Of a stretch of DNA of 64,000 bases, positions 27,989 through 43,229 are shown in pieces (position 1 is the first letter of the stretch; each line of letters opens with the position of its first letter). The DNA is from Eledone cirrhosa (Eukaryota), in contig OZ024740.1 of assembly GCA_964016885.1 (NCBI GenBank), forward strand, positions 47,430,001 through 47,494,000, in the 5' to 3' direction. A model generated the notes under the pieces. That model was not told the origin of the DNA. It searched no databases and worked only from the letters and a program-made list of their open reading frames with translations. Both the position numbers and the translations under genes were made by a program.

Positions 27989-28618
27989 AAATAAAGGATT
28001 ATGAGTTCATGCAATTGACTTATGTTTCGTCACTATATATATATATATATATATATATATATATATATATATATCGGTTATCGAGTTGAGCTCTGCTGAG
28101 GATCGAATATCAACCGTGACCATCTCCACTGAAAGTTTACGTGAAATAGTCTTTAAGACTATACAGAGCATTTGAAGTTTTTCCAAATTGAAGGATGAGT
28201 ATTTTAAACTTTATTTTATCATGAGTTAAGGCTCTATTGATTTTTCAATGGATTTCACTAAATTCTGTGGATGAATCTTTATCCTGATTCTCTTTGAGAT
28301 GAGTTTGAATTATTTTTCCCACATCTTACGTTAACTATTTTTCCCATTTTGACGCTATAGTCACTTATATATTATGGAATACTGTTGGCTTTTTGCTACG
28401 TTTTCTATACCTTTCATTTATATATATATATATATATATATATATATATATATATATATATATATAGAGAGAGAGAGAGAGAGAGAGAGAGAGAGAGAGA
28501 GAGAGAGAGAGAGAGAGAGAGAGAGAGAGAGAGAGAGGTAAAATAGCCTCGTGAAGCAAAAACGTTTTTTAATGCAAATCTATGATAACATTCTAGATCA
28601 GAGGTGTAACGAACTTAC

Positions 28619-28651
28619 CGTTATAGACTACAGGTTTATGATCAGCTTCAG
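28619..28651 (-). CDS. micro-exon E10 (33 nt): (A)EADHKPVVYN
   Basis: tttttctttgttcatttag acceptor, G|gtaagt donor, phase 1-1. Confidence 0.8.
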
Positions 28652-28824
28652 CTAAATGAACAAAGAAAAAGAGTATTTAATATATACTTTGAAATGAATC
28701 ATTTATTTATTTAATTATTTATTCAACCTATAATAGACTCGGGAGAAGTATCGATTACTCCTTAAAGTTGTAACATAATTAAATATGTATATGATGCAAT
28801 ACTGATTCCCATTTATTATTACTA

Positions 28825-30075
28825 CTAGCAGAAGAACCGCCCGTCGCGCGTTTTTCTGCTAGCATGTATTGTGTGTATATTGATATACGCAAATATATAT
28901 ATGCACATAGATATGATACGTAAATTGACAATATGCACATAAACTGAACAAAGACTGCTTTACACTTACTTCAGTAAAGTAATCCATGATACATTTTTAA
29001 AAAAGCGATAACAGAGATGGAAAAGCGATGAAACCGTTGACGGAAAATGTTCATGAATCTTCACTTGAGAATGTCGGTGGGAAGCGCCAAGCAGTGAATT
29101 TGAAAATAGATGCTGCTGGTATAAATGAATGAATTACATTTACCAATATGAAGAGTTGACCTTCGCTATATTGTTGTTTTACCGTATTCACATATAGACT
29201 TCTTAAGTTTTTGTAGTGTCCCTTTTCTAGCAGTTAAAAAGAAACTGAAATGCATTTCAACTAAAAGAGAGTGATAGCTGTTTCACATCACGGTAGAATT
29301 TCTTTGTAGACACAGTTGTCAGCAAACAGACCCCTTTCATTTAATATTTTTATATATTCTTTTTTTTTTTTAACTCGTGATAATGCAGCATACATTTGAC
29401 CATGTGAAAAGTTGGTAGAAATACATCTTTTCAAATGTCTATCCTTGTGCCTTGTTGCATGTAAGGGCAAAGGCTGGTTTGACAAGAAATTGCTTGCGAG
29501 TAAAGGTAAAAGGGAACTCAAGCTCTTGAGATACATGTGGTATCCTTGGGATTAGCAACCTTGTTCCAGCATTGGGACCCAATGCCACTTCAGCTTCAAT
29601 TACATGATTCTGTAAACTGATGAAGATGTAGCGTGTACCATTGCAATGCCCGTTTAGAGGATCCAGATTTCTCAGAAGCATGATGCAATTGCATTTCTTC
29701 AGTTTAAGTATGTGTGTTTGGAATCCTGATGAGGTAATTGGATATTGCAGTTCATTATCTACTGTATCAGAGCTTCTGTAGATTATTTCATGACCAGGGA
29801 ACTTGTTGACCATGAACTCATTCACCAATCTTGCTGCATCATTTGTTGGAGTGATAATGACTCTATTTGCAAGTCATAGTGGGTTTGTGTAGTTTCCTGG
29901 AAGATTTGTATACACAAAATCACACAGGCCAGACACATTACCATATTCCAGACAAAGTTAATTTGGCAGAAGAATTGTTAATGCACCTACAGTTGGAACA
30001 GTTGGAATGTTACCATTTCCCACATCAAGAAGGTAGTTTGCAAACTGTCTTTCATCAGAAACGATCCACACGATC
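28825..30075 (-). mobile_element. Helitron 3' part (PIF1-family helicase C-terminus, hairpin, CTAG end)
   Basis: LLRNLDPLNGHCNGTR, RKQF..PAFALTCNKAQG and FSHGQMYAALSRV motifs. Subterminal GC hairpin, then CTAG|T at 28825. Frameshifted. Confidence 0.9.
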
Positions 30076-30082
30076 AAGGTAA

Positions 30083-32180
30083 GTGACCCTTTCTCACTTG
30101 CCCCGTTTCTCATCCAACATGGCTGTACTCAGAATAGGCAGTATAAATGCACGTAGCCTGGGGTCATCTTGGAAGCAGGGTCACCTTCTCAACGACCTCA
30201 GGTCACAAAACATAGATGTGGTGGCCATCAGTGAGACCAGAATCTCCGAAGCACAAGCTTTCGCACCGATCTTCGGAGGCTAAAATGTACGCATCTCCCA
30301 GCAGTCCAGGATCGGGGGGAGGGGTTGCCGTCCTTTTTCGGAGACGCTTGGATCTCGCCATACGGGCCATCTTCCTAGACCCAGAAGGTAAGTCGGTGGT
30401 GCTATACGTGACCGGCAGAGAAGGCAATGCTTTCAGGCTAGTAGCCGTCTACGCCCCAACAGGGGCAAGACGGCCAGATTTCTTCAGACGTCTAGAGAAT
30501 TTTTTTTGGAACGTCCCACTCTTTAGTGTTAGTGGACGACTGGAACGGTATCTTGGATGCACGCTGGGATTGTGTGGGGCTAGTTGATAGGGGGAGGGTG
30601 CAAGAGCATCACCAACCTGCTCAGACGTTTTGAACTGTCTGACAGGTATCGATTGGATCACCCGAATGTGCCAATGTGGACATGGACAAACCGCATCGGG
30701 TCATCCAGATCGTATCTCGATAGGGTATTCTGCAGAGAACTAGATAAGGCTAGTATAAGTTGTCCACAATTTAAAATAGTCGACTACACAGACCACAAAT
30801 TTGTGATCTGTGAGATCGACATAGACAGATTTCATAGACAAGGGAAGCTGAACGCGTCTTTCCCGGCGCGCAAAGCCTACAGAGACCTGATTAGCGTATT
30901 AGTTAAGCGGGCGTTGACGGGAGCGGTCGACAACAACAGGTGGTGGTTCGCCCTGAAAAGGGAAATTAAAGTAGAGTCGATTAGGTTTAGCAAAGGAGTA
31001 GTGATAGAGGAAAATGGAGTAGAGGGAGAGCTAGTCAGAAAGCTAGAAGAGGCGTTTAAGACAGGCATCGCAACTGACGTGCTTGCGGCGAGATTGGCAC
31101 TCGACCAATTCTTCAACGCAAAACACAAAGGCTGCGTTGTCAGAGCTAGAGCGCCTCAGAGCTAGAGCGCGTGCTCTGAAACACGAGGAGACAAAAGCCG
31201 TCCAATGGGCCCGGGTGGCAGAGGCGCGACGTGGCAACAGTATCGGTGGAACATTCACCTCGGCCTTCTATAGAGGACTAGTGGAGGGGAAGAGCGACGA
31301 CGTTCTCGGAGAGATCCTGGGCGTCGAAGAAGATCAGCTGTTTGCTCTCTTCCGGAGAACTTTCAGCCCAGGTCCTATGGATAACTTCCAAATGTCCCTA
31401 GCCTGGCAGTGCTACCGGAGAGCGCAGCCGGTTCGAGATAAGCTCTACAGGCACGAGTGCAGTCAGCCGAGTCTGTCCGAGATGCGCGCAGAGCGACGAA
31501 ACCGTCGTGCACGCCCTCGTTCAGTGCCCGAGCATTGCTGACTTATGGAGCTATGTCGAACAGTTGCTGTCGCGTGTAGGACTGATCCCGTTATCGACTG
31601 AGTCCATTGTGCTCGCCGTCTTCCTTCGAGGAGGAAGGGCAGGCGGTTTTCATCTGCCTGTGGGCCATGGCGAAAGAGATTGTGTGGTGGACAAGGTTGG
31701 AAGGGTTAAAGACAGACACTTTCCTCGTCGGCGAATCCCTAATTAACTTTTTCAAGTTTCACTTGAAGAGGAAAATCAGGGTGGAGAGGCAAGTGCTGCC
31801 TTCTAGCAAGTTTGTTGAAAGGTGGGTGAATGTAGCGAGAATGGTCCGAGTGAACGGGACCACTCTGAATATACGTCTGTAGTTTGAGAAATGGAAATAT
31901 TGAGAGGGCGCTTGCCCTGGTGGTCAGGGTGGCCGTGGTCTTTTGTGTGATTTTCGCCACGAGTAACCCTCGGAGGTTTCCTCCCTACTGGGGAATTTTT
32001 CATTGTTTCAATTTTCATTTTTATTGTTTATATATATATATGTTTGTATGTCTTTTTTTCTTTTCTTATATAAATAATAAAAATATTTACACGCACAAAA
32101 CCCACATCGTACCGTCCTGTACCGTCCTGTGTCGTCTGTAATGTTTTTCTTGATGTCAGCCCTTGTGGCCAATAAAGAAA
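30083..32180 (+). mobile_element. L1/Tx1-clade LINE ORF2 remnant: APE endonuclease joined to the C-terminal zinc knuckle, RT deleted
   Basis: SINARSL, AISETR, GGGVAVLF, AVYAP, SYLDRVF and TDHK endonuclease motifs. C-terminal CxxC..ETVVHALVQC. aataaa then (TTA)n. Confidence 0.85.
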
Positions 32181-41770: not shown

Positions 41771-41909
41771 AATAAATAAACAAATAAATAGATAAAGACT
41801 TTAAAAAATAAACATAAGTTTCATTGTAATGTTTGAATTATTATTATTATTATTGAATTATTGAATTATTATTATTATTATTATTATTATTATTATTATT
41901 ATTATTAAG

Positions 41910-42097
41910 GGCGGTGAATTGGCAGTATCGGTAGAGGGTCGGATGCCATGCTTTGACGCATAGAGTTACGGCCCTTGCAATTCCGAGTTCAAATCCCGCC
42001 GAGGTTAACTTTGCCTTTCATCCTTACGGGGTCGATAAAATAAAGTACCAGTAATGTACTGGGTAATTGGTGGCCTTGTGCCAAAAAGTAGAAACAA
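41910..42097 (+). mobile_element. SINE family 1, full length, in (TTA)n
   Basis: A/B boxes and central domain. Confidence 0.88.
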
Positions 42098-42368
42098 TTA
42101 TTGTTATTATTATTATTATTATTATTATTATTGTTACATATATATATGTGTGTGTGTGTGTGTGTGTGTGTGTGTGTGTGTGTGTGTGTGTGTGTGTGTG
42201 TGTGTGTGTGTGTGTGTGTGTGTGTGTGTGTGTGTGTGTGTGTGTGTGTGTGTGTGTGTGTGTGTGTGTGCGTGTGTGTGTGTAGAAGTAAAATAGCCTC
42301 GTGAAACAAAAAGGTTTTTTAATGCAAATCTATGATAACATTCTAGATCAGAGGTGTAACGAACTTAC

Positions 42369-42401
42369 TGTAAAAGACTTCATGTTTATGATCAGATTCA
42401 G
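42369..42401 (-). CDS. micro-exon E8 (33 nt): (P)ESDHKHEVFY
   Basis: tttttctttgttcgtttag acceptor, gtaagt donor, phase 1-1, paralog of E9/E10. Confidence 0.78.
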
Positions 42402-43229
42402 CTAAACGAACAAAGAAAAAGAGTATTTAATATATACTTTGAAATCAATCATTTATTTATTATTACTCAATTTAAACGTCCGCATAGAGCTAACAACCTA
42501 TGACAGACTCGGGAGAAGTATCGAATACTCCTTACAGTTGGTAATCAAAAAGAGCTAATGTGACAAGTAATAAAAAAGAAAAGAAAAAAAGGAAAAGATA
42601 AAAAAGAAAAAAAAAGAAAAACTAAAATGAAATTTTAAAAAAGAAAAGGAGGAAAATGAAATAACAGAAATAACATTCCAAATATTGAAGGCCAGTGGGA
42701 AGCAGATTATAATTGTTTGATTGAATATGAGTGGAAAGACATACTTCTGACCACAAAAAAATATCCGCATTTTTGCAGTGGGGTAAATAAAATAAAATAA
42801 AAACGTTTTATTAATTTTCATGTCGCCATCAACGAAAAGGGTGCTGTATGTATTTAACAAAGAATATATATTGTTTTGAGATTTTCAATATCTAATTCAA
42901 TTTCATAAGTTTAATCCAGTATAGACTATGGGTATTTCTTTTCTATGTTGTAAATCAAGAGTAGTTTACAATAGGACTATTAATTAACTGACGTGGTAAT
43001 TACGAAAGACAGTTAATTATATTACTTGTATACATGTAAACCGTTATAATAAACAATGAAATGTCATTTAATATAACATCTAGAAGACAGTGTCTTCTTT
43101 AAATATTTCTTATTGAAATTGCTGGAATATGTAGCACACGTAATTGTATATATATACATATATATATATATATATATATATATATATATATATATATATA
43201 TATATATATATATATATATATATATATAT

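Follow-up and report, generated by a model that had tools for sequence, protein, structure and literature searches.

Micro-exon genes (MEGs) have been described as seemingly confined to flatworms and linked with parasitism (PMC4350168). According to this and two other sources, they occupy transposon-rich loci, duplicate their exons, and undergo fast amino acid change (PMC4350168; PMC4015677; 10.1101/2020.04.08.031872), and they escape gene finders and read aligners (10.1101/2020.04.08.031872). Here we describe a locus of comparable architecture in a 64,000-nt stretch of contig OZ024740.1 (assembly GCA_964016885.1, positions 47,430,001 to 47,494,000; hereafter the window, numbered from its first letter), which consists of AT-rich animal DNA heavy in microsatellites. 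The reading that we hold with slightly more confidence than doubt is that the window carries one minus-strand protein-coding gene with tiny phase-1 exons, which is MEG-like and would encode an interface protein particular to its lineage, with diversity arising through exon duplication, amino acid replacement, and in-frame skipping. As in the MEGs of schistosomes and tapeworms, the coding region would be composed of runs of tiny symmetric exons in a transposon-rich setting, with exon duplication and fast replacement.

In total, 13 minus-strand candidate exons of 24–69 nt were identified between positions 63522 and 20720 by splice-site scans and flank comparisons, and all of them have a length divisible by three and are open in phase 1. 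They include four duplicated families. Three of the 13 are the exons E8, E9, and E10 of an initial annotation of this DNA; the numbers E1–E7 were assigned to fit these three, and their match to the annotation's own list is uncertain. E1 (63454–63522, 69 nt) is a single-copy candidate with a weak pyrimidine tract. It is followed by an old quartet comprising E2 (57136–57171, 36 nt; a candidate with the weak sites AAG and GTCAAG), E3 (54125–54151, 27 nt), E4 (51104–51130, 27 nt), and E5 (50366–50401, 36 nt), the last of which is a distant member of the quartet and has the strongest splice sites. The remaining predicted exons are E6a (48324–48347, 24 nt), E7a (46915–46950, 36 nt; a divergent copy), E8 (42369–42401, 33 nt; likewise divergent), E9 (35448–35480, 33 nt), E10 (28619–28651, 33 nt), E6b (27446–27469, 24 nt; identical to E6a), E7b (25345–25380, 36 nt), and E7c (20720–20755, 36 nt). 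Because all of them are phase 1-1, the reading frame is kept whichever copy is gained or left out, as the symmetry of MEG exons requires.

A strict splice-site scan, the thresholds of which were fixed after the exons had already been seen, returned nine minus-strand candidates, all nine of them divisible by three and open in phase 1, as against one of three on the plus strand; in 100 block shuffles, the mean number of symmetric phase-1 candidates was 0.26 and the maximum 3. The nine candidates represent no more than five families. Splice-site scoring found no longer exon with strong sites between E3 and E10 onward, and no stop codon arises at the junction in any of 78 ordered exon pairs. Further evidence comes from the old quartet, in which the upstream introns of E2, E3, and E4 are 69–75% alike (z 11.5–18) and which E5 joins through E2 (66%, z 5.1; BLAST E-value 2e-12). 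The AG, the GT, a length divisible by three (36, 27, 27, and 36 nt), and the open frame are kept in all four copies, with exons 52–78% alike, so that splice signals and frame persist although the upstream introns are only 66–75% alike. Outside the quartet itself, a profile built from it touched E9 in the window, at an E-value no better than 0.74. Splicing of these exons is likely. When splice sites were scored by base frequencies, no more than the E4 acceptor, E5, E9, and E10 passed, and the weaker exons E1, E2, and E6 are less sure for that reason. A further candidate exon at 51858 was ruled out, being in the wrong phase and homologous to a quartet intron. Two good minus-strand acceptors at 59853 and 57916, with their best donors, would make one exon of phase 1-0 and one of phase 0-1, a possible extra pair between E1 and E2.

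The initial annotation had described a module of about 270 bp that occurs three times and holds a 33-nt exon each time. This is borne out by self-comparison of the window, which places the modules at 28538–28827, 35401–35676, and 42288–42545, each containing a minus-strand 33-nt segment open in phase 1-1, preceded by a pyrimidine tract and TAG and followed by GTAAGT. An 18-nt exon pattern, with up to three mismatches allowed, matched exactly three places in the window, namely the three modules (0.12 expected; three matches were reached in one of 100 shuffles). As had been claimed, E9 and E10 differ at two sites, both in third codon positions and synonymous, whereas E8 differs from E10 at 6 of 33 nucleotides, each time with a change of amino acid: five are internal replacements (A>S, P>H, V>E, Y>F, N>Y), and the sixth affects the split codon at its first base. 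Both silent changes are assigned to E9 because E8 and E10 are identical at these sites. The annotation had taken the synonymous pair as support for the reading frame; frame and exon status are indeed supported, chiefly by evidence from outside the triplet or around it, i.e. the strict scan, the retention in the old quartet, and the conservation of the near flanks described below. The microsatellite closing each module differs from copy to copy. A fourth piece of the module, without the exon and absent from the initial annotation, lies at 21197–21325; several of its flank letters are shared with E9 and E10 against E8, which suggests that E8 is the derived copy of the triplet. Profiles of the E8, E7, E6, and E1 regions revealed no further copies within the window, and a degenerate exon pattern had no match in metagenome contigs.

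The annotation had also raised the case of a dispersed, many-copy repeat without splicing evidence; as regards copy number, this holds for one part of the module and fails for the other. Public DNA contigs of one sample (runs X1, X2, and X3) were aligned on 42290–43135 at 80% identity, the contigs listed being a part of the total; their summed depth is not a copy number and serves solely for order-of-magnitude (hundredfold) contrasts. This depth was 1212–10930 over 42464–42579 and 311–1157 over 42667–42724, compared with 0–79 over the exon and its flanks (42290–42434) and 14–30 in most bins of 42725–43135. By this measure, the distal 5' portion of the E8 copy (42463–42560), which accounts for about 95 nt of the module, behaves as a high-copy dispersed repeat, whereas the exon-bearing core (42289–42462, minus strand) is low-copy and consists of 59 nt upstream, the exon, and 80 nt downstream, followed by the microsatellite. 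Its counterparts lie at about 35403–35540 and 28539–28710.

The modules are separated by introns of 6888 and 6796 nt, and the transposon blocks that had been reported between them were confirmed by RVT_1 matches in three open reading frames (ORFs) and a Pif1 fragment. The E9–E10 spacer (28825–35400) contains the Pif1 (Helitron-type) fragment, a decayed plus-strand element, and a reverse transcriptase (RT) ORF of 944 amino acids; the E8–E9 spacer (35677–42287) contains RT ORFs of 405 and 798 amino acids, repeats resembling short interspersed elements (SINEs), and microsatellites. Apart from repeat fragments in common, the spacers are not copies of each other in the self-comparison and are therefore most simply explained as later insertions. 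The Pif1 fragment, within 28825–29873, is followed by a GC-rich stretch and CTAG, presumably a sequence resembling a Helitron 3' end, and adjoins the 5' edge of the E10 module, with the exon outside the element. The 944- and 798-amino-acid ORFs (32383–35217 and 38337–40733, minus strand) are long open RT frames of elements without long terminal repeats, situated inside (TAA)n runs; among the best 120 of 306 matches, the closest relative of the former is 64% identical.

The most recent duplication involves a block of E6, E7, and E8. Unit A (42288–48525, minus strand) comprises E6a, E7a, E8, and a decayed 2.8-kb transposon-like element; unit B (21197–27647, minus strand) is an approximately 98% copy of it; and unit C (16740–21201, minus strand) is a second copy of the E7 segment, which enters a scaffold gap represented by a run of N at 16540–16740. 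Unit B breaks off about 40 nt before an E8-type acceptor would be reached and is fused there to the upstream intron of E7, where unit C begins. Should unit C keep to the layout of unit A, the missing DNA is predicted to hold an E8-type exon about 485 nt inside. The transposon-like element (43380–46213, with copies at 17193–20118 and 22099–24923) is bounded by 110-nt inverted ends (96%) and carries another inverted repeat in its interior. Its motifs suggest a Penelope-like element; Pfam gave no RT or nuclease match, and its interpretation as mitochondrial DNA was rejected. Since units A, B, and C are only 1–2.6% apart and unit C abuts the run of N, haplotypes could have been written in tandem beside the gap by misassembly. 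This explanation is very improbable: three copies exceed two haplotypes, the B–C junction is a clean internal breakpoint, and contigs of the one sample match unit A without differences at 42668–42814 and 42785–43017 and carry B- and C-type letters at 43063–43094. In addition, both E9 and E10 types are present in public contigs, and the distal flanks of E8, E9, and E10 are 7–13% apart. E8-type exon letters were not seen among the contigs listed, which would fit an artefact, but in run X2 the exon was left uncovered altogether, and this absence was not used as evidence.

Divergence between the copies is centred on the predicted exons. E7a and E7b differ at 6 of 36 exon positions, compared with 15 of 1344 flank columns (p 2.8e-6), and E7a and E7c at 8 of 36, compared with 13 of 755; E7b and E7c differ at 2 of 36, both changing the amino acid, versus 7 of 726. 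Even with the 2.6% divergence of the adjacent transposon copies as the yardstick, the excess remains significant (p 3e-4 for E7a/E7b and 3e-6 for E7a/E7c), and none of the non-overlapping 36-column windows of the E7 flanks (37, 20, and 20 windows) contains more than three differences. The E7 family gives a better signal of diversification than the E8/E9/E10 contrast. In the triplet, the near flanks differ by 0–3% (E8/E9, 2/101; E8/E10, 4/137; E9/E10, 0/99), whereas the distal repeat part differs by 7–13% (5/71, 6/45, and 5/46, respectively), and the near flank is the more conserved with p 0.003 for E9/E10, 0.016 for E8/E10, and 0.10 for E8/E9, which fits constraint on splicing signals. The flank divergence of about 4 in 140 bp given by the initial annotation consequently holds for the near flank of E8 and E10 and not for the distal 5' part. 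Its notion that constraint and diversification coexist in one exon family is apt as a description and statistically thin: the chance that both of two changes are synonymous is 0.044, and the contrast in non-synonymous to synonymous changes (N:S), 6:0 versus 0:2, has p 0.036. The exon excess of E8/E9 has p 0.0002 against the near flank and p 0.018 against the distal repeat.

Public contigs bear on the same contrast. In run X1, at least three contigs cover the exon, namely one of the E9 type and two E10-like forms with V>D and D>N, while run X3 contains the exact E10 form. The two extra E10-like variants, which are alleles or unassembled paralogues and may stem from the exon predicted in the gap, both change the amino acid; they weaken the argument from synonymous-only differences and strengthen the picture of amino acid variability. 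Among the public datasets listed as containing 46950–52190, none is RNA; 0.84–0.91 of its sequence words were present in three runs of one sample, a result that is uninformative on expression. Overall, the predicted exons appear to change faster than their own introns, mostly at replacement sites.

These segments could instead be pseudo-exons, either dead or never in use, within DNA that is duplicated and rich in repeats, with clusters of differences produced by gene conversion or template-switch mutation. A series of results weighs on that side or, more broadly, against the reading as a diversifying gene. The pooled in-exon N:S of 13:3, with about 23% synonymous sites, is not above neutral (dN/dS, the ratio of the two substitution rates, not above 1; p 0.48), and synonymous changes in the exons exceed the flank-based prediction. 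One of 70 windows of 36 nt in transposon copies A and B has seven differences (sliding maximum 8). The cluster concerned, of seven to eight differences in 36 nt at 43912 between copy A and copies B/C, means that clusters of this size arise outside exons too. The exon excess of E8/E10 (p 0.004 against the near flank) has p 0.39 against the distal repeat, and inclusion of the two E10-like variants, with N:S 2:2, brings the contrast with E8 to p 0.13. E6a and E6b are identical. The homology of the E4 and E5 flanks alone is not significant (z 1.4), the sites of E2 are weak, and the pyrimidine tracts of E1 and E6 are poor. On the plus strand, a looser scan rule yields chance symmetric candidates of 6–21 nt; 59% of equally long random stretches are stop-free; and the module is in part a dispersed repeat. 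The window shows neither a start nor a signal-peptide exon nor a confirmed last exon, and a first exon would lie beyond 64000. Homologue searches with the frame of E1, the one exon long enough for them (the assembled product was not used as a query), yielded no candidate in one case and no accepted relative in another, in which the two matches among 1.84 billion were both tandem-repeat ORFs scoring by summed repeats and were rejected.

Nevertheless, a pseudo-exon origin is unlikely, because the divergence peaks coincide with predicted exons in two families, the splice sites, lengths, and open frame survive about 30% intron divergence, and the strict scan lies far above the shuffles. The locus is probably a real, fast-evolving MEG-like gene outside the flatworms, judging from these patterns. 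With the neutral-like N:S, the transposon cluster, and the identity of E6a and E6b, the data do not tell selection apart from conversion or local hypermutation; given real exons, selection rather than local mutation is nonetheless the likely driver of the divergence. The stretch of E7b (minus strand) that differs from E7a is a small perfect inverted repeat with 5-nt arms and a 3-nt loop, as noted by eye, and template switching could explain part of the difference cluster in this exon.

If the exons are real, the copies may all be included constitutively, giving a repeat protein lengthened by exon duplication with no isoform machinery. Most splice sites are near-consensus GTAAGT, and no internal duplication could survive if its phase were not symmetric, which is why phase does not imply skipping. 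Weak splice sites and multi-kilobase introns around tiny exons favour some skipping, however, and both occur here, the former on E2, E1, and E6 and the latter around exons of 24–36 nt. Moreover, E9 and E10 contain an internal in-frame TAG acceptor (35456 and 28627, minus strand), which would yield an exon of 9 nt in phase 1-1; the corresponding letters in E8 are AAG. Constitutive inclusion of every copy is accordingly judged unlikely, and variable skipping is favoured by a small degree. Genes of the Dscam type carry tandem-duplicated, mutually exclusive exons, and E8, E9, and E10, as adjacent paralogues of equal length and the same phase, might likewise be exclusive alternatives for one protein position. 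This arrangement has very little probability: introns of 6.8–6.9 kb create no steric hindrance, every site is GT-AG, the frame is kept when two copies are included, and E9 and E10 encode the same peptide. Complementary 12-mers of the docking type did not occur beyond an AT-rich repeat (0, 3, and 3 matches; shuffle mean 1.7), in a comparison confined to perfect 12-mers, which leaves weaker pairings possible.

The duplications, the splice signals, the common phase, and the exon-centred divergence are present in the DNA itself. A gene with variably skipped micro-exons may have arisen from them as follows. It would grow by repeated tandem duplication of exon-plus-flank modules, singly or in blocks, after which transposons would inflate the introns; new exon copies would then gain amino acid changes faster than their own introns change. 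The outcome would be a variable, basic, histidine-rich, cysteine-free polypeptide of low hydrophobicity. The 149 predicted residues include 10% histidine, are rich in alanine, valine, asparagine, isoleucine, and lysine, lack cysteine, and have an isoelectric point of 9.8; no hydrophobic segment occurs among the 13 exons (maximum 12-residue hydropathy, 0.93). The product, the secretion of which we infer by analogy only, would most likely act outside the cell or at its surface, in interaction with a ligand, a mate, or a microbe. E4–E6 may resemble the C-terminal strand of fibronectin III.

Other features of the window include a 263-nt imperfect palindrome (5569–5831) and a 222-nt inverted pair with 99% identity (60035–60256 and 61098–61319). 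A possible terminal coding exon that stays open in phase 1 until its stop is found at 9890–9838 (minus strand), and an ATG immediately followed by GTAAGT, without an upstream acceptor, at 13695 (minus strand); any link of the two to the gene would be conjectural. The SINE and the (TAA)n-targeted long interspersed element of the R4/Dong type are presumably octopus-like. The mix of transposon classes agrees with that given for Octopus vulgaris (PMC13282606). From these repeats, an octopod host is probable.

Exons evolve faster than introns in snake venom genes. In conotoxin genes, according to one study, introns with simple repeats are conserved and the coding exon is hypervariable, with both dN and dS raised (PMC3862624). 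The faster change of exon than intron is shared with the present locus as an analogy only: conotoxin genes are multigene families of two to three exons with cysteine frameworks, whereas the product predicted here lacks cysteine, and no toxin feature was found in it. The likeness to the Dscam type is that neighbouring exons are paralogous and agree in length and phase; by contrast, no steric, frame, or docking-site mechanism was found here, and duplication has affected several different exon families, partly in blocks of more than one exon. Among marine invertebrates, GranRep of a sponge and YYD of Ciona are presented as diverse secreted proteins made of short repeats, specific to their lineages and lacking homologues (PMC11703226); the GranRep repeats sit within one exon, whereas here every unit forms its own exon. 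No description of this gene, its exon peptides, or a cephalopod micro-exon gene was found in the literature searched, which left supplements and most subscription papers outside.

The closest counterparts are the flatworm MEGs. By the operational rule of the Hymenolepis genome paper (10.1101/2020.04.08.031872), 13 of the 13 predicted exons qualify, a count to be read with the facts that they were partly picked for symmetry and that the gene ends lie outside the view. A run in which four or more micro-exons come one after another is present at the level of prediction from E3 to E10 and onward. As to the raised dN/dS of schistosome MEG families, the replacement rate of E7 is far above the rate of its flank, and the pooled in-exon N:S is not above neutral. 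The locus appears to work like a flatworm MEG and is not assigned to any MEG family; judging from the repeat landscape, its host is not a flatworm, and the likeness concerns the architecture of predicted exons only. Tentatively, a free-living mollusc, probably an octopus, may have independently evolved a diversifier of the MEG type, with duplicated micro-exons, new residues within about 1–2% neutral divergence, individual variation in copies and alleles, combinatorial skipping, and a secreted recognition, defence, or gland protein as the product. Because gene finders and read aligners miss such genes, a hidden class of micro-exon genes may exist in cephalopod genomes. With duplications of three ages side by side, i.e. 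the old E2–E5 quartet, the middle E8/E9/E10 triplet, and the recent E6–E7–E8 block, exon birth and divergence become directly measurable, and the locus makes sharp predictions in its splice junctions and the exon in the gap. Compared with the flatworm MEGs, diversification here would take place among exon copies inside one gene of at least 43 kb, and a MEG-like gene that evolves fast outside the flatworm phylum would, if confirmed, represent a convergent route to the diversification of interface proteins.

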